The position numbers were made by a program, and so were the translations under genes. The notes under the pieces were generated by a model, which worked only from the letters and a program-made list of their open reading frames with translations, was not told the DNA's origin and ran no database searches. Positions 4,701 to 54,655 of a DNA stretch of 64,000 nt are shown here, piece by piece. The DNA comes from Candidatus Omnitrophota bacterium. GTDB taxonomy: Bacteria > Omnitrophota > Gorgyraeia > 2-01-FULL-45-10. The stretch lies in contig JAGVGJ010000027.1 of assembly GCA_020057115.1 (NCBI GenBank), positions 5,058 through 69,057 on the forward strand, given 5' to 3'. The stretch's first letter is position 1; each line of letters opens with the position of its first letter.

Positions 4701-7700
4701 TCGATGCCATGTTCCAGGCAGGCGTGGCCAAGAATATAATAGGCGCTCGTTCGAGCCGCCAGAGGGCGAGGATCGTGGGCCTGGTGGATGCATACAATAA
4801 GAACAGAGAAGATGTCTCGATACTGCAAAAGCAGATAGCCACTCTAAAGGGAAAGCTGAAAGAGCTTGAAAGCGCGTCCAGGTCGCCTCAGACAGACGCG
4901 GTAAAGCGAAGCATAGAAGAGAATATCTCGCGCATAGGCTCCGAATACGAGAAGCGGAGCTCGGTAATGAGGTTCATAAGCGATGATATCGAAACATTCC
5001 TCAAGGAAAGCTTCCAGAAGGTCCCGATGGCAAGGCTGGACCAGGCCGAGCGCGAATGGGTCTATTCCCATCCGAGGCTTGCCATGCTTAAACGCCTGGG
5101 GATGAACGATGAATATGACGCGTTGGTAAGGCAGAGGCGCGTTATATTCTCGATCGTCGGGCAAAAAGGGCTGGCGGCATCTGAAGTTAGGACAAGGCAG
5201 GGTGTCGCGGATAAGAATATCACAAGGCCAGTTGATATCGACAGCGGCCTGCAGCAGCTGCTTCGCGCAGGTGTGGGTAAGTTTGCCCAGGGAGGTATTA
5301 ACGGAGTATATGAGAGAAGGCAATTCATAAGCGACCTCAATGCTATGATCGTATCAATGAGACAAGGAATGAGTTTTGCGCAATCATTCGAGAACGCGAT
5401 GAAGGAGAAAGATGCGAACTATAAGCTTGCTTCTTCGTATCGCGACATCCTGACCATGCTTAAGGGCCCGGAAGGCGCAGGTATCGAGACGGCCGCCACC
5501 GCATTTATGAAGAGATTGGCAAGTCGAGATGCGGCCGCGTGGAGCCAGGTCAACATGGTCATGCCGGAAGGCTATGTATTTAAAATGCCGCTTGGCAAGG
5601 ACCTGACATTCCTTGAGTTCAAAGATATAGGCAAGATGCCGGCAAGACAATTGGCAGGCAAGGTGTTCAAGGTAGACTCGGCGACGTCAGCGCTTAGCGC
5701 AGTAGATATGGAAGGCGAAACAGGAAGGCTCTTCCTGTTCGCATTATCCCGCAGGCATGCCGGAGAACTCATAAGGATCGTTAATAGCACGGTCGATCTT
5801 CCTACCGGGGAAAGGGCGGCGATATCAACTATTATATTCCAGGACCGGGAACAGATAGCGATAACCAGAGATGCGCTTGGCCTATTTACAAGAGAGCTTG
5901 GCGGAATCCAGCGTCAGGCGGAATTCTTGAGCATGGCAGCCAAAGACGTGCCGGGCCTCATCAATCCGACAACTTATTTTGAGATAAACGGAAAGGTGTT
6001 CGGTTCCGCCAGTAAAAAGTTCGATGCAGCCCAGGAGGTCCGCAAGGAGATAGATAAGGACATAGGCAGGGAGAATGTTATACGAGAAGGCATGGAAAAA
6101 ATAGATGTTAAGATCAAGCTATCGAGTGCTCCTTTCGGAGCATTTACACCTTACAGGATTTTTGATAGCTCCGGGAACGGCATATCCGTGAAGCGTTATC
6201 AGAATGGCGTGATAACAATAGGGGCGAGGAGAAACGTGGACGGAAAGGTCATGGCGGTCGGGGTTGATGAGACGATGTCCGCAGAGGACCTTGCCGACGA
6301 AAATAGGTTGTACGGACTTATAGAGTCGCTTAACAGAAGGGCGCCCGGCGTTGACTCGGATGCGATGATACGTAAAGTATTTACAGGGATGGGGATCCTG
6401 CTTCCTGGCGTAGGAGAGCCTGCGCTTATGCACGCCGGATTTGGCATAGCGATGTCAGGCTATGCCTTCGCCTCAGTAGAGGATGTAGAAGCTCACAGGG
6501 TTGCCCTGCAGGGCGAGATAGATAAAGGTATCACGCCTAGTAGCTTCGTAAAAGATAAGGTAATAATTGGCGGCAAGGAGATTCAGATAGTAATACATAA
6601 GACAGTATTAGACAGGCTTGATGCCGTAAAGAAGACTTTGCAGGGCTTTATAGAAGAATGTATAAAGATACGCGGGCCGGATTATGAAGCTACATTAAGG
6701 ACTAAGCTTGCAGGAAAACCCCTTATATTCGACGCCCTCACCAGATCTCCAAATCTCTACGGTAATTGCCAGAATGACGGCTATATCTACATAAATACCA
6801 ATTCGCCTATCCAGCTTGATGCGGTAGGTGTCTCTCATGAGTTCATGCATGAAGCGGATATATTCACTGATTCGGAGACCGATGAACAGGCGCTGGCCAA
6901 GAAAGATGTCGAGCTGATGCAGTATGTCGGCATAGATATCGCAAAATTCATGGAAAGACTTAAAGACGTAACGATGCCTACCGGGTATCTTGCAGCTGCG
7001 CTCGCAGCTATAGCATCGGCTAGACCGGTTGGAACGGCAGCGCCCATGCGCTTGGAAGGGGAAAACCTGATAGCTAGCTGCGACCGGTCGAATGCATGCG
7101 ATCTGCCTAACAGGCACAGGTATGTGGAAGATCTTGTTAAAAAATTACGTGAAGGTAAGAGGGTGGAGGTCGTTTCATTGAATATCCAGAACTTCAAGAT
7201 GGAGTTCAATGATAGAGGTAATAGCCTGGGGCCTGAGGTGGGCCATTTATTCGGAGATTTCGGTATACAGGCGGTTGCCGACGCATTGCCGAAGGCCATA
7301 AAGGCTACGTTGGAAGAGAAAGGCATCAAGGGCAATTTCGCGGTTTATAATGACGGGAAAAGTTACTTTGTCATATTTGAAGATATGCCAGCAGGATTCT
7401 CGGCTACAGATGCCCTGGAGTCGATGCTTAAGGATGACAATACTGCCTTCAAACGCAGCGTTGTCAAGAGCGTCATCTCCGAGACCAAAAAGGTGAAAAA
7501 ATGGAATGATGAGGCAACAGCCGATTTCACCAAAAATTTCACGACCCGCAACTTCAACATGTATGCCGGCATCTCTGCGCCGGCCTCCCTGAAGGACGAA
7601 GTTGGTTCCGGCGTAGATATCTTAAAGCTCGCGCAGCGCGCTGTTGCCCAGGCGGATCTTTCGGCAAAGGCCGCCCAGATGAGGACCGGGGAGATACTCA

Positions 7701-10700
7701 ACGCGATATTCCAGCAGTCTGACATGGAGGGCAAGACAGAGGCAGATATCCGAAAGCTGATAATGGATCGTGCTCAGAGCGCAAGGACCATGGCGATAAG
7801 CGCATGGCGCCCGTACGGAGCGCATGTGGAAGATGAAATAGTGGCGCTTGCCAAATACAGCCCTAAAGGCGAGTATGAAGTCATATACAGGCCGATCCCG
7901 GAAGTTTATAACGAAGAGGCTACCTATGAGAATCTTATTAACCAATATAGAGTTGCGCTAAAAGCAAGAGATCCGGCTAAGGTCCTGAAGGCCAAAGAGA
8001 AACTCTACGATAAGATGCTATTCTATGTACCTGAGCCGTCTGTGAGGTCGAGGTATGTGCGGCCGATCATCGTAGGGATGGAAAGGTTCAGGGATGCCAT
8101 AAACGGATTGATAAGGGCCCCGCCCCAGGCCGATTGGTCCGGAACATTTCGCGTGGGAGGGGATGAATTCGCGAAAATCATATTTAATGCCAAGACCGGG
8201 GTCTTGAGGATATTGCGGTTTGACGCGAATAACCTTGGAAAGATGAATGCCGCATGGGGTAGCAGGATCGGTGACAGGGTGATCGATGATATGCTGCGGC
8301 TCATCGATAAAGTGCAGGATCCAAACGACCTGATGGAGTATATCTATAGGTATTTTGACAATACAAATGAACGGGGCGAGAATTTCAGGGACAATCCTCT
8401 GGAGCTGACCGATACGGATCATGCTTATATATTGCGGGAACTCGTCCGGTTAGACATAAAAGATACTTCAAGGTACTTAATTTCAGATGAGAGCGGCAGG
8501 AATTATCTGGTCAAAGTCCCACCGCTATCATTGACGCATCAGGAAACGGGCAGGTCTTATAAGACCGGGCCTTCGGTTTCTGTGGGGCTTGTCGAGATAG
8601 ATACTCACCTCATACCCGGAAAAGATAGAATGCGTGACTTTTCTCCGATCCAGGGCAGGGCCGATTCAACGGCCGAGACAGTTAAGTCATCTATAAAGAG
8701 ATACCAATCCGAGCATGATGGCGCCATCGATTTTGCTGAAGTCAACAGATTGATGGTCAATTCTCAGCCATTCAATACAAAGGCATTGACAACATTCGAG
8801 AGATCGCCTATCGACCCGCTCCGTGAAGAGTTCGCAAGGTTCATCGTATCAAAACTTGAAAAGCCGGCCGCGCCAGTTACACCCGAAATGGCGCCTGTTG
8901 TCCCCGCCGCGCCGGCGCTTGACTTTAATGTGCGCATAGAGGCAGTTTCATTTAAAGGCGTAGAAGCAGAGTCTTGGAATAAATATAAAGAGCTTCTTGA
9001 TATGGCGCAAGAGATCGTATCATCTATCCCGAGAAGCGAGCTATTGACCATTATCCGCAACATATCCGGCAATAAGACGCTGCGTTTTGAAGATATTTCC
9101 AAAGACATAGCCATATCGTATTTTGCGGAAGGAGTCCATAAGTATGTCTTCAGGGTCGCGTTTTCGACGAAAGAGGGCAAACCGCTCGAGATATTGCTTG
9201 CCGCTAAAAAAGAGAAGAACTTAAAAGATATAAGCGGACACGAACTGCAGAACTTGAAGAAACTGCACGGCAGAGGCGTCCCTAAATTCGGTGGGTCGTT
9301 CAGGTCTAAGGACGGCAGGTTGTGGTATCTGGAAGAATTTATCGCCGGAGATACGGTCGGCGCGCTCCAGAAGCAAGGTGCCTTGAAGGACAATGTCAAA
9401 CGCGGCATAGTGGCTACCATGTTATTGATCGCTACCGGACTTAACGGGATGATACCGCGCGACATGCATGCCGAGAATATAATGGTTGAGAAAGGAACGG
9501 GCAGGGTTGTGATGGTGGATCTAGGAGACAGGAGGTTACATATAACAGGCAAAGACGCCACCGATGCCCACAGGATGCTATTTATAGGCATGCTGTTGTC
9601 CCAATACGGCGTTAACGACAAGGAGAGACCTGAGCTTGACCATGTCTTCTTTGACGCCATAGCCAATGACAGATCTCTTTCCGAGGAAGGAAGCCTTGAA
9701 ATGCTGCAAAAGGCGTATGCGGAACTTGAGAAGAGAGGCCAGGCAGGCGTTGTTGGCTATCTGGCCAAAGAAGGGCGCAATATGTTCGTAAGCGTCGGGG
9801 CGCAGAATAGGGATGCTGCGCGCATGGACGATTTTGTAGGCACATTTACAAGAAGCCTCGGATCATACCTTGCTAAGTCAGGCCAGCTCCGCGGCCCGCC
9901 TATTATGCCAATATCTACAGCACCGGTTGCTGCCGCTGTCCCTGGTATTGTGAGCCTTACCGATAATATTGCTGAAGACATGGCGTTGCGCAATGTGATC
10001 GCTCTGGCAAGTTTCAGCCATGCGTCGAACAGGCTTACCGAAATAATGGGCATGGTGCAGATAGTTATGACGCTCACATCTGACATGATAGAGATACTAA
10101 AGAAAGAGAATGCGTCGGACGCCATGTTGAACGAGATGCGAGATATCCGAAGAGGCATGGTCGATGACGGTATAAGCAAAATAATAGAGCTTCACAAAAA
10201 GGCCATAGAACAGATGAGGAGTGGAGGCAAGAAGTATGCTCCTGCAGAAGTGTCTTCATGGAAAGAGGAATACCTTAAAGCGTACCGATCTTTCGAAGCT
10301 TCCGCGAAAAGGTTCGACGGCGTAAAAGAGAAGATGGCGGCCGCCGTAACCGATAAAGAACTGCCAAAACTTCTGAAATGGTATGGTGATGTCGCGCCCA
10401 AGCTTGATGACGTGCTTTCTGACAGGGCCAGTCTTATGACCGGCGAACTTAAAGATGAGTTGATCGATTTGCGCGAGGTCCTTGATCGGGAGCTCTTTAT
10501 AAAATTACTCCAGGCCGTTGTCAATAACCCTGCTACGGAAAGGTATTTCGATATTCGCATGCCCGACGGACCTGTCATGGTCAAGGGCAACAGGATATCG
10601 CTATCAGCACTCTTTACAGACCTTGCTAACAATGCCTATAAGTATGCCGAGAAGGCGCAGAAAGGGAATGCCAAAGTAATCATTGAGCTTGCACTTGAAA

Positions 10701-11935
10701 ACGGCAAGCCAGTGGTCAAGGTGACCGATAACGGCGAGGGCATAACGCCGGAGAAGCTGGCCCAGATGCAGCAGCCGTTCTTCACTACCGGAGGCACGGG
10801 TATCGGCCTTACCGAGTCGCGCATAATAGCCAAGGACCATGGCGGCTCGATCGATGTGCAGTCAGAGCCTGGCAAAGGCGCTATGTTCATAGTCCGCCTG
10901 CCTCTCGCATCAGCACCCGTCTCTATACCGCCTGTCGTCGAGGTCGCTGGGCTGGTGGCGCCGGCACCAGGCGAGAGGGAAGTGGTGAAGGTTGAAAAAG
11001 TGACTACGCCTTTGACAAAGGTGGAAGAGGCTTCCAGGAGGCGTGCGAAAAAGGCTGGCCTTGAGATAGCGGTTTACCGCAAGAATGTAGTTCCGATGGC
11101 TGAGGAATTTGCCAGGTCCAAGGATATCGAAACCCTCAGGCGCGAGCGAGATATATTGCAGCAAAAATTCGAAAGAGGCGAGACATTGCCTATTTACCAG
11201 GATGAAGCGTATGAGCTTGCTATAGAGATGCTAGAGGGTGCGGCGCCGGCTATAACTCCGAGCCAGGTCATCAAGACCGCACTTGCGGATGCGGCTCAGG
11301 GAACCGCGAATATAATAGTCATGGCAGGGTCTGAGATGTATGTTGCCCAGCAGACCAGCATAAACCGCACTATGGCACAGCAGCTCGGCAAGACGCAGAA
11401 TATCACGGTAGTTCCTTACAGCTATAAATACGGGGAGAATATCGATTGGAAGGCCGGCATAACAAAGGTCTTGTCTATGGCAGTGCAGGACCTTCACGCC
11501 AGGATCAAGAAAGGCGATGCTACTGCGCGCGTGATAGTATTTGTGCCATTCGACGGCGTGAAAGATGTGAAGGCGATGGTGGCAGGCATAGACGCCGATA
11601 TGGTGCCCAGGGTGACGGTCGTCGGCGAAGCCAATATGCCGATGGACGGAGGCATAGATAACATAGTCCATATAGCGTCAGGCGTAAGCATGCTTGAATA
11701 TGAAAGATTCCGGAAAGGCGATTACGGTGATGCTGTCATGCCGCAGGAGTCCAAGATGCGCTTAAATGACCTCATGAAGCTTCTGGTCGTAGATCCAGCC
11801 GCTATCGATATAGGAAAACATCCGGATATAATAGACAGGATCCTGGACGGCCTTACCGCCATACCGCTCAGGCCGATCACCGGAGAAATATCCCAGCGCA
11901 TAGAGAGTATGAAGAAAGTCCTTCAATCACTTTAA
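1793..11935 (+). CDS. Giant multidomain protein (3380 aa), a signalling/enzyme mosaic. Order of elements: N-terminal signal/TM anchor; TraB/GumN-like motifs; CPBP (CAAX/Abi) intramembrane protease-like domain; kinase-like DxxxxN loops; an HExxH motif; degenerate and canonical GGDEF motifs; HisKA-like H-box plus HATPase_c.
   Basis: A single uninterrupted 10.1 kb ORF. All antisense ORFs inside it are short and low-complexity. The motifs I read in the translation are listed below.
- Hydrophobic anchor ALVVAIVFFFNTIYLDVALA.
- MIHIQDAH … AVIVTGGFHSENL, which resembles the two signature motifs of the TraB/GumN family.
- EEGLYRG, FIADH and HLTIN, matching the three CPBP motifs EExxxR, FxxxH and HxxxN.
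- FRVDFRPENAIL and IPRDMHAENIM…VVMVDLGD, which are protein-kinase-like.
- VSHEFMHE, an HExxH motif.
- LNIQNFKMEFNDRGNSLGPEVG…YNDGKSYFVIFED, a degenerate GGDEF-like stretch, and FRVGGDEFAKII.
- ASFSHASNRLTEI (H-box-like) followed by DLANNAYKYA, DNGEGI and GTGIGL, the N, G1 and G2 boxes of a GHKL/His-kinase ATPase.
Alternative start at M13 (nt 1829). Confidence 0.85.
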   Translation: MFRDRHPKKGLAMEKKNFFRQIVKAFIKHRARATALVVAIVFFFNTIYLDVALAAKTDAGLASVSTPSASTSKTSQPYKDLNIKDFILPDYLGTIKDRYISPSASGDVMIHIQDAHCNQPCQNKIADIISYLNSEYGIKVINLEGGSGEYDTAVFTRIGDMNIRQKVAETFVGEGMLNGGEYYAVLNPEKASLWGLEDASLYVKNLDVYRDSLKHKDEVDKYLKSLNHALSSLKAKMYSKDLLELDLKTSAYKSDNIDMRAYLAYLCDAAVRKGMGIDKFADIASLKKAIDLEKSIDFRTADVEREELFKALSKRLSKNAMEEFAAKAIEFKAERISPEVFYGYMLSRARSSGLKTDKYPELAKYLAYVSSYASIDKIKLTKEIESLENALKESYFENEGQRELASLSKNLIILANIFNLKLSKDDYDYYLANEGNFETALYAKFIQKNASIYKIADRLDNGVSDLDTYRKEISKFYEYSLKRDDAFMRNMKFGGGPGSRGQGPDSEVRGAVIVTGGFHSENLCELFKKSGISYISIMPSFKIEEGYACPYFKLLAGQTDGMQNRLYSIISSETRTSGMQIASMLSSAIAEAVWGKARVNAFRAAVEIDTMVTEGKRVLVVNDKGEVLKDARGEELVFGEGEDKPIRIAELLGIPSAEAPDVYAVPVQAVAPQKAAPAITPAPAAPVIRPLGGAVTGWLKRLTPGMPEWARALIAAPIVEEGLYRGFPLLASMATVLIAGAGFNWQLIMIGSVFFQIPAGLKFIADHYPKGRAPPSVIIKMLLAPSIVAIINAVILPLVFTNPFMFTGAAILSHLTINLAVMIANAIFPSVNIGFAAIGVSSGRPGPATSNIETLKRMMRDHASALERSAWDRSGRLGRYMLLMRELLDKGVFRVDFRPENAILTDNAMSAQTFDYDKLYEATNVSWDETKYFIFASVIQPARYVFRELARDASGKERADWFSEYFNDYLDAMFQAGVAKNIIGARSSRQRARIVGLVDAYNKNREDVSILQKQIATLKGKLKELESASRSPQTDAVKRSIEENISRIGSEYEKRSSVMRFISDDIETFLKESFQKVPMARLDQAEREWVYSHPRLAMLKRLGMNDEYDALVRQRRVIFSIVGQKGLAASEVRTRQGVADKNITRPVDIDSGLQQLLRAGVGKFAQGGINGVYERRQFISDLNAMIVSMRQGMSFAQSFENAMKEKDANYKLASSYRDILTMLKGPEGAGIETAATAFMKRLASRDAAAWSQVNMVMPEGYVFKMPLGKDLTFLEFKDIGKMPARQLAGKVFKVDSATSALSAVDMEGETGRLFLFALSRRHAGELIRIVNSTVDLPTGERAAISTIIFQDREQIAITRDALGLFTRELGGIQRQAEFLSMAAKDVPGLINPTTYFEINGKVFGSASKKFDAAQEVRKEIDKDIGRENVIREGMEKIDVKIKLSSAPFGAFTPYRIFDSSGNGISVKRYQNGVITIGARRNVDGKVMAVGVDETMSAEDLADENRLYGLIESLNRRAPGVDSDAMIRKVFTGMGILLPGVGEPALMHAGFGIAMSGYAFASVEDVEAHRVALQGEIDKGITPSSFVKDKVIIGGKEIQIVIHKTVLDRLDAVKKTLQGFIEECIKIRGPDYEATLRTKLAGKPLIFDALTRSPNLYGNCQNDGYIYINTNSPIQLDAVGVSHEFMHEADIFTDSETDEQALAKKDVELMQYVGIDIAKFMERLKDVTMPTGYLAAALAAIASARPVGTAAPMRLEGENLIASCDRSNACDLPNRHRYVEDLVKKLREGKRVEVVSLNIQNFKMEFNDRGNSLGPEVGHLFGDFGIQAVADALPKAIKATLEEKGIKGNFAVYNDGKSYFVIFEDMPAGFSATDALESMLKDDNTAFKRSVVKSVISETKKVKKWNDEATADFTKNFTTRNFNMYAGISAPASLKDEVGSGVDILKLAQRAVAQADLSAKAAQMRTGEILNAIFQQSDMEGKTEADIRKLIMDRAQSARTMAISAWRPYGAHVEDEIVALAKYSPKGEYEVIYRPIPEVYNEEATYENLINQYRVALKARDPAKVLKAKEKLYDKMLFYVPEPSVRSRYVRPIIVGMERFRDAINGLIRAPPQADWSGTFRVGGDEFAKIIFNAKTGVLRILRFDANNLGKMNAAWGSRIGDRVIDDMLRLIDKVQDPNDLMEYIYRYFDNTNERGENFRDNPLELTDTDHAYILRELVRLDIKDTSRYLISDESGRNYLVKVPPLSLTHQETGRSYKTGPSVSVGLVEIDTHLIPGKDRMRDFSPIQGRADSTAETVKSSIKRYQSEHDGAIDFAEVNRLMVNSQPFNTKALTTFERSPIDPLREEFARFIVSKLEKPAAPVTPEMAPVVPAAPALDFNVRIEAVSFKGVEAESWNKYKELLDMAQEIVSSIPRSELLTIIRNISGNKTLRFEDISKDIAISYFAEGVHKYVFRVAFSTKEGKPLEILLAAKKEKNLKDISGHELQNLKKLHGRGVPKFGGSFRSKDGRLWYLEEFIAGDTVGALQKQGALKDNVKRGIVATMLLIATGLNGMIPRDMHAENIMVEKGTGRVVMVDLGDRRLHITGKDATDAHRMLFIGMLLSQYGVNDKERPELDHVFFDAIANDRSLSEEGSLEMLQKAYAELEKRGQAGVVGYLAKEGRNMFVSVGAQNRDAARMDDFVGTFTRSLGSYLAKSGQLRGPPIMPISTAPVAAAVPGIVSLTDNIAEDMALRNVIALASFSHASNRLTEIMGMVQIVMTLTSDMIEILKKENASDAMLNEMRDIRRGMVDDGISKIIELHKKAIEQMRSGGKKYAPAEVSSWKEEYLKAYRSFEASAKRFDGVKEKMAAAVTDKELPKLLKWYGDVAPKLDDVLSDRASLMTGELKDELIDLREVLDRELFIKLLQAVVNNPATERYFDIRMPDGPVMVKGNRISLSALFTDLANNAYKYAEKAQKGNAKVIIELALENGKPVVKVTDNGEGITPEKLAQMQQPFFTTGGTGIGLTESRIIAKDHGGSIDVQSEPGKGAMFIVRLPLASAPVSIPPVVEVAGLVAPAPGEREVVKVEKVTTPLTKVEEASRRRAKKAGLEIAVYRKNVVPMAEEFARSKDIETLRRERDILQQKFERGETLPIYQDEAYELAIEMLEGAAPAITPSQVIKTALADAAQGTANIIVMAGSEMYVAQQTSINRTMAQQLGKTQNITVVPYSYKYGENIDWKAGITKVLSMAVQDLHARIKKGDATARVIVFVPFDGVKDVKAMVAGIDADMVPRVTVVGEANMPMDGGIDNIVHIASGVSMLEYERFRKGDYGDAVMPQESKMRLNDLMKLLVVDPAAIDIGKHPDIIDRILDGLTAIPLRPITGEISQRIESMKKVLQSL

Positions 11936-31597: not shown

Positions 31598-32593
31598 ATG
31601 GCGAAGATCTACTATGACAAGGACGCGGATCTAAATGTGTTGAAGGGTAAGAAGGTCGCAGTCATCGGCTACGGCATACAGGGCCGCAGCCAGAGCTTGA
31701 ACCTGAGGGATTCGGGGATAGATGTGATCGTAAGCGAACTTCCCGGAACGAAGAATTATGAGCAGGCGAAGGCCGATGGTTTCAATCCGGTCTCTGCCGA
31801 AGAGGCCGCGAAAGAGGCCGACATAGTCCAGGTATTGACCGAAGACCATGTGCAGGCAAAGGTTTACAAAGAGAGTATCGCGAAGCACATGACCAAGGGC
31901 AAAGCTCTCGTCTTCTCCCACGGCTTCAATATTCGTTTCAAACAGATAAAGCCCACCAAAAAGATAGACGTATTCATGATAGCCCCGAAAGGGCCCGGCG
32001 CGCTTGTCCGCAGGATGTATGAAGAGGGTAAAGGCGTTCCATGCCTGGTGGCGATATACCAGGACGCTACCGGTAATGCCTTGAAGATCGCGCTTGCTTA
32101 TGCCAAAGCGATAGGCGGGGCGAGGGCAGGAGTTATAGAGACGACATTTGACGAGGAGACAGAAACAGATCTCTTCGGCGAGCAGGCAGTCCTCTGCGGC
32201 GGCGTTTCCGAGCTTATCAAAGCAGGTTTTGACACGCTCGTAAATGCAGGATACCAGCCCGAGATAGCTTATTTTGAAGTGCTCCACGAGCTTAAGCTCA
32301 TCACTGACCTTATACAGGAAAAAGGTATAAGCGGGATGAGGCGGAGCGTATCCAACACAGCGTGCTACGGCGATGTGACCAGAGGCAAGAAGATCATCAC
32401 CGAGCGCACTCGCAAGGCTATGGACAAGATGCTGAAAGAGATCAGGTCCGGTAAATTCGCCAGGGAGTGGATAAAGGAGAATACGGAAGGCCAGAAGAAC
32501 TTCAGGGCTATATTGGCCAAAGAAGACGGCGACAAGATAGAGAAGGTAGGTCAGGACCTGAGAAAGATGATGCCGTGGATGGAAAAGAAATAG
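31598..32593 (+). CDS. ilvC: Ketol-acid reductoisomerase
   Basis: A 331-aa protein: …[22 protein letters not shown]…VLTEDHVQ…, a class I KARI. Confidence 0.92.
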
Positions 32594-32672
32594 GGTCTAG
32601 GGGCCAGGGTCAAGGGTCCAGGAAAGAAATAAAATCTTTCTGGACCCTGGACCCCGGACCCTTGCCCCTGAC
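32594..32672 (+). repeat. Intergenic GC-rich palindromic element R1 (GGGTCTAGGGGCCAGGGTCAAGGGTCCAGG – AT-rich loop – TGGACCCTGGACCCCGGACCC…)
   Basis: An inverted repeat built from GGGTCCAG-like heptads. It starts right after the ilvC stop and ends before the leuA RBS. Confidence 0.8.
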
Positions 32673-32684
32673 AGGCAGAGTGCT

Positions 32685-34290: not shown

Positions 34291-35133
34291 ATGGCAAAGA
34301 CGATATACGGCATAATAGGTTACCCGGTGAAGCACTCGCTCTCGCCCGCGATGCAGAACGCCGCATTTAAGGCGCTCGGGATCGACGCTGAGTATAAGCT
34401 ATTCGAGGTCGCGCCGGCCGATGTCGGCAGTTTCCTCGATAGCGCCTCCGGGAAAGGCATTTCGGGATTTAATGTGACCGTTCCGCACAAGATAGCGGCA
34501 AAGGAGTATATCGAAAAGCGCGGTTTTCTCGATGAGACCGCCAGGAAGCTCGGCGCCGTAAATACCGTAAATACGGCCGGCGGCTCGTTGAAAGGCTATA
34601 ACACGGACGGTCCGGGATTTTACCGCTCGCTTCAGGAGGACCTTAAATTCGAGCCGGAAGGGAAGAATGTATTCGTACTGGGCTCGGGCGGGGCGGCAAG
34701 GGCGGTCGTCATGTATCTTGGGAATGGGCCTAAGAAGATCTATGTCTTTGACGTGGACGCGAAGAAGGCGGAAGATCTCAAAACGCATTACTGGAAATAT
34801 TACGATGCAGACCGCCTGATGACCGTCTCCAGGTCGGATATGGGGCTTGTGCTATCCCAAAGCCATCTTCTTGTGAATGCCACTCCGGTGGGGATGAAAG
34901 AGGGCGAGGCGATGCCAATCGATAAAGAGTCTCTGCATCTCGGACTTAGAGTCTATGACCTGGTCTACAACAGGCAGACGGAGCTTATAAAGGAAGCATC
35001 CAAAATGAAGCTGCACGCTGTTACCGGCCTTGGGATGCTATTATACCAGGGCGCGATCGCATTCGAGATATGGACGGGACGCAGCGCACCTGTTGATGTC
35101 ATGAGAAAAGCGTTGAAGAGCGCGATAAAGTAA
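34291..35133 (+). CDS. aroE: Shikimate dehydrogenase
   Basis: YGIIGYPVKHSLSPAMQNAAFKALGID…GSGGAARAV. Confidence 0.9.
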   Translation: MAKTIYGIIGYPVKHSLSPAMQNAAFKALGIDAEYKLFEVAPADVGSFLDSASGKGISGFNVTVPHKIAAKEYIEKRGFLDETARKLGAVNTVNTAGGSLKGYNTDGPGFYRSLQEDLKFEPEGKNVFVLGSGGAARAVVMYLGNGPKKIYVFDVDAKKAEDLKTHYWKYYDADRLMTVSRSDMGLVLSQSHLLVNATPVGMKEGEAMPIDKESLHLGLRVYDLVYNRQTELIKEASKMKLHAVTGLGMLLYQGAIAFEIWTGRSAPVDVMRKALKSAIK

Positions 35134-35209
35134 AGGGTCCAGGTCCCAGGCTCCAGGAACCAGAATATTATTTTGCTGGTACCTGGAACCTGGTACCTGG
35201 TACCTAAGG
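35134..35209 (+). repeat. Intergenic palindromic element R2 (GGGTCCAGGTCCCAGGCTCCAGG … CTGGTACCTGGAACCTGGTACCTGGTACC)
   Basis: Same architecture as R1, with a GGTACCAGG variant on the right arm. Confidence 0.75.
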
Positions 35210-35220
35210 ATAGACTGAAT

Positions 35221-35994
35221 ATGGCAATTTTCATTTTCGTGATGGGAGCGATCGTGGGGAGCTTTCTGAATGTCTGTATCTATAGGTTGCAGAGATCCGA
35301 GTCGATAGTTACGCCGGCCTCGAATTGCCCGAATTGCAAAAAGCCGATACCATGGCATGACAATATACCGGTCATAAGCTATCTGTTCCTGACCGGCAAG
35401 TGCAGGTTCTGCGGGAAGATGATATCGCCGCGCTATCTATTGGTAGAGCTCTTGACCGGCGCGCTTTTCCTGACGCTATTCACCGCATTCGGTTTGTCGC
35501 CGAAGTTCTTCGCGTATCTGATGCTCGTATCAGGGCTCATCATAGTGACATTTATAGATTTTGACACGCAGACCATACCTGACCATATAACGTTTACAGG
35601 GATCGCTGCGGGAACAGCGGCTGCGTTGGCGGCGCCTTCCGTAATGGGAGAGGCGTCGAGGGTCTTGGCTTTCTTCAATTCGGCGCTCGGCGCGGTCGTC
35701 GGGGGCGTGATGATATACGCGGTCGCATTGCTGGGTAAGATGGCTTTCAAGAAAGACGCTATGGGGGACGGCGACATATTCTTGCTCGCCATGATAGGCG
35801 CATTCCTCGGGTGGAAGCTGGTGATATTGACTTTCTTCATAGCGCCTATGTTCGGAGCCGTAGTAGGCATAATATTGAAACTGAAGCGCGGAGACGAGAC
35901 GATGCCGTATGGGCCGTACCTGTCTCTCGGCGCGCTTGTGTCGATATTTTTCGGGAACAGGATATTGGAATATTTGTTTTATGGATTAAAATGA
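35221..35994 (+). CDS. pilD: Prepilin (type IV) leader peptidase, A24 family
   Basis: N-terminal Cys box CPNCKKPIPWHDNIPVISYLFLTGKCRFCGK, a catalytic Asp region DGDIFLLAMIGAFLGW, and 6-8 TM helices. The track start at 35173 lies inside R2, so the ATG at 35221 is preferred. Confidence 0.88.
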   Translation: MAIFIFVMGAIVGSFLNVCIYRLQRSESIVTPASNCPNCKKPIPWHDNIPVISYLFLTGKCRFCGKMISPRYLLVELLTGALFLTLFTAFGLSPKFFAYLMLVSGLIIVTFIDFDTQTIPDHITFTGIAAGTAAALAAPSVMGEASRVLAFFNSALGAVVGGVMIYAVALLGKMAFKKDAMGDGDIFLLAMIGAFLGWKLVILTFFIAPMFGAVVGIILKLKRGDETMPYGPYLSLGALVSIFFGNRILEYLFYGLK

Positions 35995-36000
35995 TTAATA

Positions 36001-36068
36001 GGGTCAAGGGGCAGGGGTCCAGGATAAAAACTTACTGGACCCCGGACCCAGGACCCTGGCCCCTTGAC
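36001..36068 (+). repeat. Intergenic palindromic element R3
   Basis: GGGTCAAGGGGCAGGGGTCCAGG – ataaaaacttact – CTGGACCCCGGACCCAGGACCCTGGCCCCTTGAC. The aroC RBS aaggagg follows directly. Confidence 0.8.
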
Positions 36069-36079
36069 AAGGAGGTTTT

Positions 36080-37204
36080 ATGCTTCGATATTTAACAGGC
36101 GGTGAATCTCACGGCAAGTGCATACTGGCCGTAATGGACGGCGTGCCGGCCGGTCTTCACATATACAAATCTTCGATAGATAAGGAGCTTGCAAGGCGGA
36201 TGGTGGGATATGGCCGGGGCAAGCGCATGCAGATCGAGGCCGATAAGGCTGAGGTGCTTTCCGGCGTCCGGAAGAACATCACTATAGGCAGCCCGATCGC
36301 CATGATCGTTGAGAACAAGGACCAGTCGATAGACTCGCTTCCCGTGGTCCTGGATCCACGCCCGGGCCATGCGGACCTGGCAGGGATATTGAAATATGAT
36401 CTTAAGGATGCCAGGAGCGTTCTTGAGCGCGCCAGCGCGAGAGAGACCGTGGGGCGCGTCTGCATAGGGGCAATAGCCAAGATGCTCCTTGCAGAGTTCG
36501 GGATAAGGGTCATGAGCCATGTGATAATGGTCGGAGGCATTGAGGCCAGGACAAAAGGCCTGGGATTCAACCAGATAATAACTCTTGCCGAGAAATCGGA
36601 CCTGAGGTGCGCTGACTACAAAGCGGCGGCCCGCATGAGGGAAGAGATAGACGCTGCCGCTAAAACCGGCGATACTCTGGGCGGTATATTTGAGGTCATA
36701 ATAAAAGGCGCTCCTCCCGGCCTCGGAAGCTATGTCCAGTGGGACAAGAGGCTGGACGCCAACCTGTCCCGGGCCATCATGTCGATACAGGCGGTGAAGG
36801 GTGTCAGCTTCGGAATAGGCTTCAAGCTAGCGGAGCGAAAAGGTTCGATAGTCCACGACGAGATATTATACGACGGGAAGATAGGTTTTTACAGGAAGAC
36901 CAATAATGCCGGAGGCATCGAGGGCGGCATGACCAACGGCGAAGATGTCGTCATGCAGGCCGTGATGAAGCCGATAGCTACATTGAAAAAGCCGCTTGCG
37001 AGCGCAAACATCAAGACCAAGAGGCCTGTTAAAGCCGTCGTGGAGCGCTCGGACGTATGCGCTGTCCCGGCAGCCGGGGTCATAGGCGAGTCTATGGCGG
37101 CCGTTGAGATCGCAGGCGCCATGATCGAGAAATTCGGCGGGGATTCCGTCACCGAGATGGTGAGGAATTATGAGGGGTATTTGAAGCAGGTGAAAGAAAT
37201 ATAG
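36080..37204 (+). CDS. aroC: Chorismate synthase
   Basis: MLRYLTGGESHGKCILAVMDGVPAG… and a conserved C-terminal FMN-binding region. Confidence 0.92.
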   Translation: MLRYLTGGESHGKCILAVMDGVPAGLHIYKSSIDKELARRMVGYGRGKRMQIEADKAEVLSGVRKNITIGSPIAMIVENKDQSIDSLPVVLDPRPGHADLAGILKYDLKDARSVLERASARETVGRVCIGAIAKMLLAEFGIRVMSHVIMVGGIEARTKGLGFNQIITLAEKSDLRCADYKAAARMREEIDAAAKTGDTLGGIFEVIIKGAPPGLGSYVQWDKRLDANLSRAIMSIQAVKGVSFGIGFKLAERKGSIVHDEILYDGKIGFYRKTNNAGGIEGGMTNGEDVVMQAVMKPIATLKKPLASANIKTKRPVKAVVERSDVCAVPAAGVIGESMAAVEIAGAMIEKFGGDSVTEMVRNYEGYLKQVKEI

Positions 37205-37279
37205 TAGGGTCAAGGGGCAGGGGTCCAGGGTCCAGAATAAAAACTTACTGGACCCTGGACCCAGGACCCTGGCCCCTTA
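37205..37279 (+). repeat. Intergenic palindromic element R4 (near-identical to R3)
   Basis: GGGTCAAGGGGCAGGGGTCCAGGGTCCAG – aataaaaacttact – CTGGACCCTGGACCCAGGACCCTGGCCCCTTA. Confidence 0.8.
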
Positions 37280-37285
37280 CGTTTA

Positions 37286-37807
37286 TTGAGGTTTGATTTG
37301 AAGAACATAGTTCTCGTAGGCTTTATGGGTACCGGCAAAACGACGATAGCGACTAAACTGGCGCTGCGGCTTGGGATGCGCTATGTCTCGACCGACAACC
37401 TTATTGAGGCAAAGGAGAAGCGCACAATAAACGAGATATTCACAAATAGCGGTGAAGATTATTTCAGGGACGTGGAATCATCGGTTGCGCGCGAAGTTTC
37501 CGCGATGGAGAATCTCGTTATAGATTGCGGCGGAGGGGTCGTTTTGCGCGAAGAGAACATGGCGAACCTGAAGTCAGGCGGCATCGTGGTATGCCTTACC
37601 GCAAAACCTGAAGTCATAATGGAGCGGACGAAGAAGTATAAACACAGGCCGTTATTGAACGTCGAGGATCCGAAGCGCAAGATACTGGACCTTTTGAACA
37701 AGCGCGCGCCTTTCTATGCGAAGGCAGATCATATAGTAGATACCGGAGATCTTACCGTCAGGCAAGTCGTAGACAAGATAGCCATGATCGCCGAAGGCCG
37801 TAAATAG
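37286..37807 (+). CDS. aroK: Shikimate kinase
   Basis: P-loop LVGFMGTGKTTIATKLALRLG. Length 173 aa. TTG start. Confidence 0.88.
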   Translation: MRFDLKNIVLVGFMGTGKTTIATKLALRLGMRYVSTDNLIEAKEKRTINEIFTNSGEDYFRDVESSVAREVSAMENLVIDCGGGVVLREENMANLKSGGIVVCLTAKPEVIMERTKKYKHRPLLNVEDPKRKILDLLNKRAPFYAKADHIVDTGDLTVRQVVDKIAMIAEGRK

Positions 37808-42004: not shown

Positions 42005-42030
42005 AATGAAAGATGAAAAAAGATATATGG

Positions 42031-42117
42031 TAGGGTCTAGGGGCAAGGGTCCAGGGTCCAGAAAGAAAAAAACTATTTTTTTCCTGGACCCTGGACCCTG
42101 GACCCTGGACCCTACAC
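42031..42117 (+). repeat. Intergenic palindromic element R5, the longest copy: (GGGTCCAG)x≈3 – A/T loop – (CTGGACC)x4
   Basis: GTAGGGTCTAGGGGCAAGGGTCCAGGGTCCAG – aaagaaaaaaactatttttttc – CTGGACCCTGGACCCTGGACCCTGGACCCTAC. Confidence 0.8.
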
Positions 42118-42130
42118 AGAGGTTTGATCG

Positions 42131-52340: not shown

Positions 52341-53383
52341 GCATCCAAAATCAAAATTCAAAAGTAAAAAGTAGAAATTACAAGAAGATCCTTATCGTAC
52401 GGCTCGACAGGATAGGCGATGTCGTATTGTCGACGCCTGTAATAAAAGCCGTCCGCGAGGCTTATCCCGCAAGCCACATAGCCTTCCTTGTAAGGCCTTA
52501 TGCCGAAGATGCGGTGAAAGGCAACCCGTATCTCGACGAGGTCATAACTTACGATAAGAAGGGTACGCTTAAATTTATCCTCAAGCTGGCGAGGAAGCGC
52601 TTTGAGCTTGCGATAATACTCCATCCTACGTCGCGCACGCACTGGGTGACATTATTGGCATGCATACCCGAGAGGGTCGGCTATGACAAAAAGATGGGAA
52701 CCCTGCTTACGGATAGGATCCCGCACAAAAAGGAACTGGGGCTAAAACACGAGGTCGATTATACTCTCGACATATTGGAACATATCGGCATCGCGGCAAA
52801 GGACAGGGCCCTATATTTTCCTATAAAGCGCGAGAGCGAGAAGAAGGTCAGGGACATTTTCGCCAGGGGCGGGATAAGAGAATCGGATGCCATAGTCGTC
52901 CTTAACCCTTCGGCAAGCTGTCCGTCAAAGAGATGGAGGCCTGAAAGTTTCGCGAATGTCGGAGACGCCATCGCAGAGCGGCTGGGCGCAAAGATAGTCA
53001 TCATATCGGATCTTAAGGACAGGGTTTTTGCGGACCAGGTGGCTAATGCGATGAGAATGGGCTCGTTCAACATCGCCGGGATGACGACCGTGGCGGACCT
53101 CGGAAGCGTGCTGAAGCGCGCGAAGCTGTTCATATCCAATGATTCCGGCCCGGTCCATATAGCGTGCGCCGTGGGAACGCCCGTCATAGCCATATTCGGC
53201 CGCAAGGATGCGGGGCTCTCGCCAAAGCGCTGGGGGCCGCGGGGGAAGAGGGATATAGTCCTGCATAAGGACGTCGGGTGCGATGTCTGCCTGGCGCATA
53301 ATTGCAATATCGCGTTCAAGTGCCTCGAGGAGATAACTCCTGAAGAGGTTATCTCTGCGGCGGCCACGATCCTGAAGAAGTAG
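52337..53383 (+). CDS. GT9 heptosyltransferase family protein
   Basis: ILIVRLDRIGDVVLSTPVIKAVREAYPASHI…SNDSGPVHIACAVGTPVIAIFG. Confidence 0.85.
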   Translation: MSIQNQNSKVKSRNYKKILIVRLDRIGDVVLSTPVIKAVREAYPASHIAFLVRPYAEDAVKGNPYLDEVITYDKKGTLKFILKLARKRFELAIILHPTSRTHWVTLLACIPERVGYDKKMGTLLTDRIPHKKELGLKHEVDYTLDILEHIGIAAKDRALYFPIKRESEKKVRDIFARGGIRESDAIVVLNPSASCPSKRWRPESFANVGDAIAERLGAKIVIISDLKDRVFADQVANAMRMGSFNIAGMTTVADLGSVLKRAKLFISNDSGPVHIACAVGTPVIAIFGRKDAGLSPKRWGPRGKRDIVLHKDVGCDVCLAHNCNIAFKCLEEITPEEVISAAATILKK

Positions 53384-53400
53384 CTTCTCGAGTATCGTGA

Positions 53401-53535
53401 ACCCTCTTAAGTGCGGGGTATCTTTACGCGAACGTAAAATTTCCAGCGGAAATTTTACTCGGATAATCGCTATCTTCGTTGAAAGATAGCGATTATCGAC
53501 GTCGCTTCAAGACACCCCGCACTTAAGAGGGTAGC
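53401..53535. other. Structured non-coding module 1. A perfect 18-bp outer inverted repeat (CCCTCTTAAGTGCGGGGT / ACCCCGCACTTAAGAGGG) encloses two perfect hairpins: an 11-bp stem GTAAAATTTCC/GGAAATTTTAC and a 15-bp stem ATAATCGCTATCTTT/AAAGATAGCGATTAT.
   Basis: Read directly from the sequence. No ORF. Confidence 0.6.
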
Positions 53536-53726
53536 TAGTTGCTCCAAGACCACCTCAGCGTCCGCCCGCTACATGAGATCGCAACCTGGGGGGCGGCGAT
53601 TGGATCACGCTCTACACGGAAAGCGGGTGAGTGATCCAATAAAACATTAAGGCGTCGTTTGTAGCGATGACGAGGGAGAATCTTCCTTATATAGCAATGT
53701 ACGGCGTGCTGTCATGTAGGCCCTGG

Positions 53727-53840
53727 AGGGGTAAGGTGTCCTGAAGCGACGTCGAAGGTTGCGATTTTTCAGCGAAAATCGCAACCTTCCGAACGACGTT
53801 CCCTCCGGGAACGGAGTGTTCGCGCAAGGACACCTTACCC
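53727..53840. other. Structured non-coding module 2. A perfect 15-bp outer inverted repeat (GGGGTAAGGTGTCCT / AGGACACCTTACCCC) encloses an approximately 21-bp bulged hairpin (CGTCGAAGGTTGCGATTTT…AAAATCGCAACCTTCCGAACGACG) and a 5-bp hairpin (CTCCG ggaa CGGAG).
   Basis: Read directly. Only a short spurious 60-aa ORF overlaps it. Confidence 0.6.
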
Positions 53841-53896
53841 CGAAAGGGCTATCACAGGGGAACGAGGATGAAAATTCGAATGAGGAGGAGATTTGG

Positions 53897-53932
53897 GCAA
53901 CAAAAAAGACCCTCATTCGAGAAGGTCTTTTT
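53897..53932. terminator. Bidirectional Rho-independent terminator (AAAAAAGACCCTCATTCGAGAAGGTCTTTTT)
   Basis: The hairpin is flanked by an A-run on one side and a T-run on the other. Confidence 0.55.
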
Positions 53933-54172
53933 AGAAGGTGATAGGCCTTAAATAGCTTTCGCTATCGTTCCATCTCCTTTGTATCTTTCTACTTAAAGTA
54001 TGCCACAAGAAAACGAAAAAGGCAAGGGTATGAGGCAAAAAATCTCAAGGGCAATATTCTGGCTTCTGTTCGCATTCTGCGTCATCTCCCTGATAGTGGA
54101 GTTCAAAAAGACCTGCGGCGAAAGATGCGCGGCTCCCGGAAGAGAGCCGGCGTCGATCACAGAGAGGGCAAA

Positions 54173-54655
54173 ATGAAGGAATTCATCGAAAAAGCCATAA
54201 GCATAATAAAGAAGAGGGAGTTCGTGATCGTCGCTACATGCGATCTGGATAACAACCCTAATGCCGCGCCTAAATTCGTTCTCAAATTGGATAAGGATTC
54301 GATATATCTTATCGATTATATCATGGGCAGGACCTATGATAACCTAAAGATAAATCCGAGGGTATCTCTGTCATTCACGGACCCGCGGACTCTTAAAGGT
54401 TATCAGATCAACGGCTCGGTCGATATCATAGAGAAAGGCCCGGTCTATAAGATGATATTCGAAGAACTGGATGCCAGGAAGGTCAATCTTACGGCAAAGC
54501 ATATCATTGAAGAGGTCCGCGGGGAGAGCAAGCATGACAGCTTTGAAGTGACGATGTCCGAAAGGTTCGTTATACTTAAAGTGGGAATGTATGAGATAGC
54601 CGAGATGAGTCCTACCGGAGAGCTTGCCAGGAAGAGGCTCAAGGACCATTCATAG
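54173..54655 (+). CDS. Pyridoxamine 5'-phosphate oxidase-like FMN-binding split-barrel protein
   Basis: About 160 aa, with MKEFIEKAISIIKKREFVIVATCDLDNNPNAAPKFV… typical of the PNPOx-like / general-stress-protein-26 fold. The track start is 54125; the ATG at 54173 is preferred. Confidence 0.5.
   Translation: MKEFIEKAISIIKKREFVIVATCDLDNNPNAAPKFVLKLDKDSIYLIDYIMGRTYDNLKINPRVSLSFTDPRTLKGYQINGSVDIIEKGPVYKMIFEELDARKVNLTAKHIIEEVRGESKHDSFEVTMSERFVILKVGMYEIAEMSPTGELARKRLKDHS

Follow-up and report, generated by a model that had tools for sequence, protein, structure and literature searches.

In the window, by which we mean the whole 64-kb stretch of Omnitrophota DNA that was analysed, a variable non-coding block of about 520 bp was found to carry two inverted copies of one 130-nt module that folds into a three-way junction. 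A third copy of this module was identified on a metagenome contig with a different gene neighbourhood. Judged from the alignment of the three copies, the module fold is maintained by compensatory change, i.e. it is selected. The reading that we tentatively favour, with a confidence somewhat short of even, is that the block represents a non-autonomous palindromic mobile element of the MITE or REP/BIME kind, the modules of which would work as folded single strands with a trans-acting protein recognising the junction.

Genomic setting and extent of the block

The block is located in an LPS-core operon, between the last heptosyltransferase gene (GT9) and the terminator of that gene. The assignment of the window to Candidatus Omnitrophota agrees with the names of homologous proteins. 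Three family-9 heptosyltransferases are encoded upstream; downstream follow, in this order, a small membrane ORF, a PNPOx-like protein, a PfkB kinase, KdsB, KdsA and KpsF, and the nearby genes are on the plus strand throughout. The right end of the block was fixed to the base (53889) and its left end lies somewhere between 53371 and 53401. The features are listed below in window coordinates, except for the last one, which is given in coordinates of the metagenome contig L011.

53368-53374, plus strand: direct repeat, left copy (GATCCTG), inside the last codons of the GT9 gene
53371-53889, no strand assigned: whole variable non-coding block (the element), about 520 bp, absent at the orthologous site in the related locus L001
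53402-53531, favoured strand minus: left module (module 1), 130-nt three-way junction, from fold and alignment
53532-53719, no strand assigned: spacer of 188 nt with two local hairpins and patchy homology to the interior of the L011 element
53720-53849, favoured strand plus: right module (module 2), 130-nt three-way junction, from fold and alignment
53850-53889, plus strand: right tail of 40 nt, the last 20 nt of which (53870-53889, GAAAATTCGAATGAGGAGGA) are the element terminus
53890-53896, plus strand: direct repeat, right copy (GATTTGG), immediately past the element terminus
L011 535-664: third module, 130 nt, from fold and three-sequence alignment

A sequence-only reading of the window had described positions 53384-54124 as a gene-free region of 740 nt closed by a bidirectional terminator. 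The first statement holds for 53384-53999; beyond it lies a 58-aa ORF (54000-54176) encoding a conserved small membrane protein with homologs in L001, L129 and L002, the stop codon of which overlaps the start of the PNPOx-like gene (ATGA). The terminator hairpin is present at 53903-53932, but it is the ancestral terminator of the upstream gene, kept in relatives without the element, and not a part of the latter. From this comparison, both the terminator and the 58-aa ORF are ancestral neighbours situated outside the element.

It should be added that ten nucleotides of the tail (53876-53885, TCGAATGAGG) can pair without a mismatch with the terminator, at its loop and 5' arm (53911-53920, CCTCATTCGA), and that the terminator loop differs in L001, a relative without the element. 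This complementarity may have arisen by quasi-palindrome correction, or it may provide an alternative pairing that competes with the terminator.

Stems and fold of the modules

The nested inverted repeats reported from the letters alone were all found at their places, and they fold far better than shuffled sequences, so the observation is real and not a product of chance. In module 1, outer arms of 31 nt with 90% complementarity (53401-53431 and 53502-53532) enclose two perfect hairpins of 11 bp (53434-53444 and 53448-53458) and 15 bp (53462-53476 and 53483-53497), both as previously described and both found by the repeat scan. In module 2, the outer arms at 53720-53749 and 53820-53849 enclose a 15-bp hairpin (53754-53768 and 53775-53789) and a 7-bp one that reaches 11 positions across a GA/AG loop; the inner stems of this module, earlier put at about 21 and 5 bp, actually comprise 18 and 11 positions. 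The two stems noticed between the modules were likewise recovered, namely CCGCCC/GGGCGG (53562-67 and 53591-96) and GATCAC/GTGATC, the second being part of a perfect 10-bp stem ATTGGATCAC/GTGATCCAAT (53599-53608 and 53631-53640). Against dinucleotide shuffles, the fold z-scores of each module on either strand ranged from -8.4 to -14.6, with no shuffle as good, and the z-score of the whole block was about -11.5, again equalled by no shuffle.

Read 5' to 3' on the favoured strand (see below), a module consists of the outer stem P1 (23 positions), GAA, the 5' strand of the short stem P2 (GCGA), CG, hairpin B, hairpin A, GU, the 3' strand of P2 (UCGC), GYA and finally P1', the 3' strand of P1. Hairpin B has 18 bp, made of UCG and a further 15 bp; its loop is U[NARC]G and a single C is bulged. 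Hairpin A has 11 positions and a loop of 3 nt. The left module shows a GAA/GUA loop between P1 (23 bp) and P2. The right module has the same architecture with additional purine-purine internal loops, GGA/GAA in P1 and GA/AG in hairpin A.

A third copy on a metagenome contig

The productive query was a spurious 89-aa ORF over module 2, which was searched as a protein against 1.84 billion representatives and returned P0122, a spurious 157-aa ORF on L011, a JGI metagenome contig of 1004 bp. A covariance model built from the two window modules matched this contig at 526-673 on the minus strand with 135.7 bits. No further relatives of P0122 were found, and P0121 was set aside as an unrelated tandem-repeat protein. 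A 94-aa open frame inside the L011 element was also rejected as a gene, having neither a Pfam/NCBIfam match nor a homolog.

The L011 element starts right after the stop codon of a gene for an RsmI-like methylase (TP_methylase) and, when read from the methylase end, matches the minus strand of the window from 53889 downward. Its terminal 20 nt are 100% identical to window positions 53870-53889 and its module is 79% identical to module 2. Similarity to the spacer is patchy and reaches as far as the start of the left module of the window, with unrelated sequence thereafter; the covariance model detected no second module in L011 where one was expected, and the contig ends 108 nt past the break in similarity. 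At the right border in the window, similarity to L011 ends with 53889, and from 53890 onward the sequence is again homologous to L001 and L129. Since the terminus, the module and the interior are common to L011 and the window, we conclude that this is one element in two unrelated neighbourhoods, with a sharp common end. The sequence-only reading had counted a lack of any second copy or homolog as evidence against itself; the search produced such a homolog on L011.

The last bases of the element terminus (53870-53889; L011 473-492) are GAGGAGGA, which strongly resembles a Shine-Dalgarno sequence and is directed outward, to the flanking DNA. In L011, an ATG lies 8 nt past it, on the strand antisense to the methylase gene.

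Homology of the modules and covariation

Module 1, read on the plus strand, gave a gap-free alignment with module 2 in reverse complement, in which the junction and loop bases were kept and the stems differed. This makes the two modules diverged copies of one element in inverted orientation, and not independent of each other as had been supposed. RNAalifold predicted 52 pairs for the two window modules, 20 of which had both sides changed and none of which was broken. Positions unpaired in both window modules matched in 14 of 16 cases, and the paired columns were 60% identical.

With the L011 module included, all three copies measured exactly 130 nt and had identical helix and loop lengths. Their gapless alignment contained 56 pairs and was 93.5% paired. 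This is the comparative alignment for covariation that had been proposed at the outset, and it revealed 22 pairs with both sides changed; none of 500 shuffles reached this number, their mean being 7.6, and slid controls gave 1-3. Invariant across the three copies were P2 (GCGA/UCGC), the linkers and the GAA/GYA loop; the conserved core includes an 8-nt palindrome, CGACGTCG.

A functionless cluster of palindromes, left behind by template switching during replication, could be imagined in a genome that is rich in long intergenic hairpins. However, it is contradicted by the homolog with compensatory changes in another genome, by the proportion of co-varying pairs and by the exactly kept length, and we regard this explanation as extremely improbable.

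Variable presence among relatives

In a neighbour-joining tree of the adjacent GT9 protein, the window was grouped with L001, P0003 and P0007. L001, the sister of the window (78% GT9 identity), has nothing at the site: its GT9 frame runs straight into the terminator, and 184 nt separate it from the PNPOx gene. The contig of P0003 (76% GT9 identity) has a gap of 780 nt at the orthologous place, which probably carries the element. In L129 and L130 (P0007, 67% GT9 identity, basal in the clade), a different hairpin-rich insert of 215 nt lies between the stop codon and the same terminator. More distant relatives have a YchF or TPR gene at the site instead.

The insert in L129 (3426-3640; also in L130) has a small outer stem that encloses two hairpins, beside the same terminator. 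It has five collinear matches of 8-14 nt to the window element and no module. We do not claim it as a homolog; the short sequence matches hint at a degenerate relative. The 3' end of this LPS-core gene may be a recurrent site for hairpin-rich inserts.

The element may well have arrived by insertion, with a putative target duplication, at the 3' end of the GT9 gene. The window and L001 cease to be homologous at GAT(C/A)(C/T)TG (53368-53374) and are so again from GATTTGG (53890-53896), and L001 has a single GATATTG where the window has two copies of the repeat. This flanking repeat would fit a target duplication of 7-8 bp, but could equally be explained by a microhomology deletion in L001. Furthermore, the C-termini of GT9 in the window (ILKK*), P0003 (LLGK*) and P0007 (ILSK*) are closer to each other and to those of the outgroups (ILG* or ILGE*) than to that of L001 (ILGNKKDPLL*); as L001 is thereby set apart, the direct repeat is weak evidence for target duplication.

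The position of the block raises the question of a cis-acting element selected by the host for its operon mRNA, which would stabilise the 3' UTR, be processed by RNase III or insulate the downstream genes from the heptosyltransferase gene; REP and BIME sequences play such a role in E. coli. Within a co-directional operon, the block follows a stop codon and precedes an intrinsic terminator, its fold on the transcribed strand is very stable, L129 has another hairpin-rich insert at the same site, and the complementarity of the ten tail nucleotides to the terminator loop would also fit. Nevertheless, the closest relative, L001, does without the block, and a stabilising hairpin needs neither invariant junction bases nor exact lengths. 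In L011, moreover, the favoured strand is antisense to the upstream gene, so that polarity belongs to the element and not to the host mRNA. Taken together, we consider a host-selected cis element decidedly unlikely.

Strand asymmetry

The two strands of a module are not equivalent. Over the three copies, all six G.U pairs (3.8% of the paired cells) fall on one strand. Purine-purine mismatches occur on that same strand: P1 has GGA/GAA and GAA/GAA, hairpin A has GA/AG, and hairpin B of L011 has A.G. The single exception is an A.A in the middle of the P1 loop of L011. RNA minimum free energies were -82.3 kcal/mol (minus) versus -75.4 (plus) for the left module, -83.1 kcal/mol (plus) versus -77.6 (minus) for the right one, and -81.6 kcal/mol (favoured strand) versus -69.6 (other strand) for that of L011. 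DNA parameters ranked the strands in the same way for all three copies. At each end of the block in the window, the favoured strand is the one whose 3' end points out of the block. The asymmetry argues for modules that work as a folded single strand.

Since the favoured strands of the two window modules are opposite, the asymmetry argues against a single transcript, or a single-stranded copy of the whole block, with both in their favoured form. The earlier suggestion had been of a large structured RNA or a hairpin element at the DNA level. A selected hairpin element is supported by the covariation, the third copy and the variable presence; a large structured RNA is not supported, the region being a composite of two inverted 130-nt modules, a spacer of 188 nt and a tail of 40 nt, with favoured strands opposite.

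Separate structured non-coding RNAs are another matter. The modules might be divergent small RNAs transcribed from the spacer, or scaffold or guide RNAs made by the element and read outward, in which case the invariant junction and the GA-rich loops would be motifs for binding of protein or RNA. The strong covariation, the invariant junction and the exact conservation of length would suit such RNAs, as would the confinement of G.U pairs and tandem purine mismatches to one strand. Divergent transcription out of the spacer would yield just the orientation that the favoured strands have, and the right module is followed by the conserved tail and, 13 nt on, by the terminator. On the other hand, the promoter and terminator scan yielded nothing beyond chance, with no promoter-like site in the spacer, and no conserved -10 element is common to the window and L011. 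Neither the left module nor that of L011 is followed by a terminator, and the share of G.U pairs is low for RNA. Long near-perfect RNA helices are substrates of RNase III, and those of 23 and 18 pairs would be so here.

The search against Rfam 15, which had been proposed as a check, also speaks against non-coding RNAs and agrees with the earlier failure to recognise any known RNA family. At the gathering threshold, nothing but a c-di-GMP-I riboswitch at 1452-1603 was reported in the whole window; at E <= 10, region 53200-54300 gave sub-threshold matches only (15-29 bits versus thresholds of 44-80). No tRNA or tmRNA genes were found. The covariation, the invariant junction, the symmetric GA-rich loops and the strand asymmetry suit RNAs as well as they suit a mobile element; on balance, structured non-coding RNAs are the main alternative, a possible but rather unlikely explanation of the modules.

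Database and literature searches

Two loci with three modules were recovered in total, from the matches listed for GTDB genomes and from the JGI metagenome, viral, phage, plasmid and protein searches. The 64-kb window holds no further copy of the module beyond its one element, and this lone occurrence leaves multi-copy behaviour unproven. The small ORFs inside the block had no real homolog and a chimeric six-frame query of the element gave no match. No transposase or recombinase was detected among the scanned window proteins or adjoining a copy, and no autonomous relative emerged from the searches above, including the matches listed for GTDB.

The exact junction of 21 nt had no match in GTDB genomes or viral contigs, and the 20-nt terminus had none in viral contigs. 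Several candidate matches were dismissed as products of chance: two to a two-sided junction pattern in JGI metagenomes, in unrelated high-GC DNA; six to the same kind of pattern in viral contigs, in a phage gene; and at least 114 to a relaxed junction pattern in GTDB, where none among the matches listed folds like a module. BLAST of the element against phages gave nothing, and against plasmids only two chance matches of 35 nt (E = 0.04).

These results bear on the notion that the block is a remnant or signal of a single-stranded or hairpin-ended replicon, similar to parvoviral ITRs or the fold-back telomeres of Streptomyces, or composed of priming sites on opposite strands. A T-shaped ITR has the topology seen here, with two hairpins inside an outer stem at both ends in inverted orientation; at either end, the favoured strand is the one that has its 3' terminus there, and folds with DNA parameters are equally strong. 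Yet tails of about 30-40 nt lie beyond the modules, which are thus not terminal, the two ends differ in sequence, and the block has only about 520 bp without a replication gene. As the viral and plasmid collections also gave nothing beyond chance, we rate this origin as highly unlikely.

No published description of such an element was encountered in the literature searched, and a search by the name of the phylum returned no mobile elements or non-coding RNAs for Omnitrophota. Omnitrophota are uncultivated and, to our knowledge, no mobile elements or non-coding RNAs have been described for them.

Other hairpins in the window

A second and unrelated family of long intergenic hairpins occurs in five copies within 10 kb, at 32582-32674, 35125-35220, 35990-36068, 37202-37286 and 42022-42122. 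It is made of heptamer-like units, (G)TAGGGTCnAGGGGCAnGGGTCCAGGGTCCAG ... CTGGACCCTGGACCC, and each copy occupies a short gap between co-directional genes. These hairpins have a REP-like look with a 5' motif of the GTAG type. The c-di-GMP-I riboswitch mentioned above, which at 49 bits exceeds the gathering threshold, precedes a 3380-aa ORF (1793-11935), and its match spans 152 nt versus 87 nt of the model because a long repeat hairpin of the GCGTTGTG type (approximately 1508-1590) is inserted.

Proposed mode of action

Under the mobile-element reading that we favour, the element would be mobile now or would have been so formerly, and its modules would act as folded single strands, most likely as DNA that is extruded or passes through a single-stranded state. 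A protein encoded elsewhere, which might move or maintain the element, would bind or cleave it at the invariant junction with its CGACGTCG palindrome, and the helices would serve as spacers of fixed geometry. Either single-stranded DNA or RNA is possible as the form in which the modules act, and we could not decide between the two.

This reading is supported by the absence of the element at the L001 site, by the second context in L011 with its common terminus, by the lack of coding capacity, by near-perfect, wobble-poor stems and by the other REP-like hairpin family in the genome. Against it stand the recovery of two loci only, extreme ends that are not inverted repeats, the lack of a partner protein in our searches, the missing second module in L011 and the ambiguity of the flanking repeat. 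It should also be added that the empty site of L001 could be a secondary microhomology deletion and not the state before insertion, and that functional RNAs just as typically have an invariant junction and symmetric loops rich in purines.

A bolder proposal, which we consider unlikely, is that a bacterial mobile system not described so far uses the 130-nt three-way junction as its functional nucleic acid, with the GAA/GYA-GCGA-CGACGTCG junction as its catalytic or recognition core. Such a system might employ branched ITR-like ends in structure-specific transposition of single strands or in a rolling-hairpin mechanism, or it might depend on a scaffold RNA that the element encodes and that is read outward over each end.

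In its exact length, 22 compensated pairs and invariant junction, the module provides a compact case of a selected nucleic-acid fold that travels on a small insert. If the partner protein were found, it could turn out to be a structure-specific single-strand recombinase with branched substrates, or the modules could constitute a new class of structured RNA. Should the element be an ordinary MITE, it would still document an unusual architecture of the ends.

Comparison with known systems

Like BIMEs and REPINs, the block combines two units of different sub-types (cf. the Y and Z palindromic units of BIMEs), which are situated at the 3' end of a gene near a terminator, and BIME/REPIN units are also thought to act as folded single strands. 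REP doublets (REPINs) are mobilised by RAYT transposases, which need GTAG beside the REP hairpins. GTAG is found immediately 5' of the right module (53716-53719), GTAT lies one base further out in L011 and the left module has GCTA, GTAG itself being absent before these two. REPs are simple hairpins of about 20-40 nt present in tens to hundreds per genome, whereas here 130-nt branched three-way junctions are separated by a spacer of 188 nt and one copy occurs in 64 kb. No RAYT (Y1 HUH) gene was seen among the scanned window proteins, and we know of none in this lineage.

With MITEs such as Correia, RPE, ERIC and Nezha, the element shares its size of about 0.5 kb, the non-coding content, an occurrence that varies among relatives at the orthologous site, ends that are homologous and inverted, and insertion at or overlapping the 3' end of a gene; a short target duplication may be a further likeness. 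It differs from them in that the stems of the inverted ends have diverged by about 40%, with their pairing compensated, and in that each end is a nested palindrome. The sub-terminal modules are inverted homologs, but the outer tails of 30-40 nt could not be aligned with each other, and terminal inverted repeats of the classical type are thus lacking. We know of no parent IS for the element. In PATEs derived from IS200/IS605, the end hairpins are active on one strand, whereas the favoured strands here are opposite.

The likeness to the ITRs of AAV, a parvovirus, concerns shape only: two small hairpin arms cap a long stem, and this figure is present at both ends in inverted orientation, with 125-145 nt there and 130 nt here. 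In contrast to those ITRs, the modules are not at physical ends, having tails of about 30-40 nt beyond them, the ends are not identical (60% of paired columns), Rep-binding repeats and a rep gene are absent, and the block resides in a bacterial chromosome. Integron attC sites also keep structure with little conservation of sequence, fold as single-stranded DNA in a strand-specific manner, reach sizes of up to about 140 nt and are sometimes branched. However, the RYYYAAC/GTTRRRY core sites are lacking here, the stem bases being CCCTC/GAGGG and GCCCT/AGGGC, conservation lies at the distal junction and not at the stem base, and there is neither a cassette array nor an integrase. Ribozymes with three-way junctions of the hammerhead type are distinguished by the core CUGAnGA ... 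GAAA, which is absent, the only linkers being CG, none and GU, and no ribozyme model matched at E <= 10 in 53200-54300.

As the element departs from REPINs in unit size and shape and in copy number within the window, and lacks the same-strand ends of IS200/IS605 derivatives, the core sites of attC, the terminal position and identical ends of parvoviral ITRs and the catalytic core of junction ribozymes, we assign it to no named family. By analogy, it appears to work most like a BIME/REPIN or a MITE.
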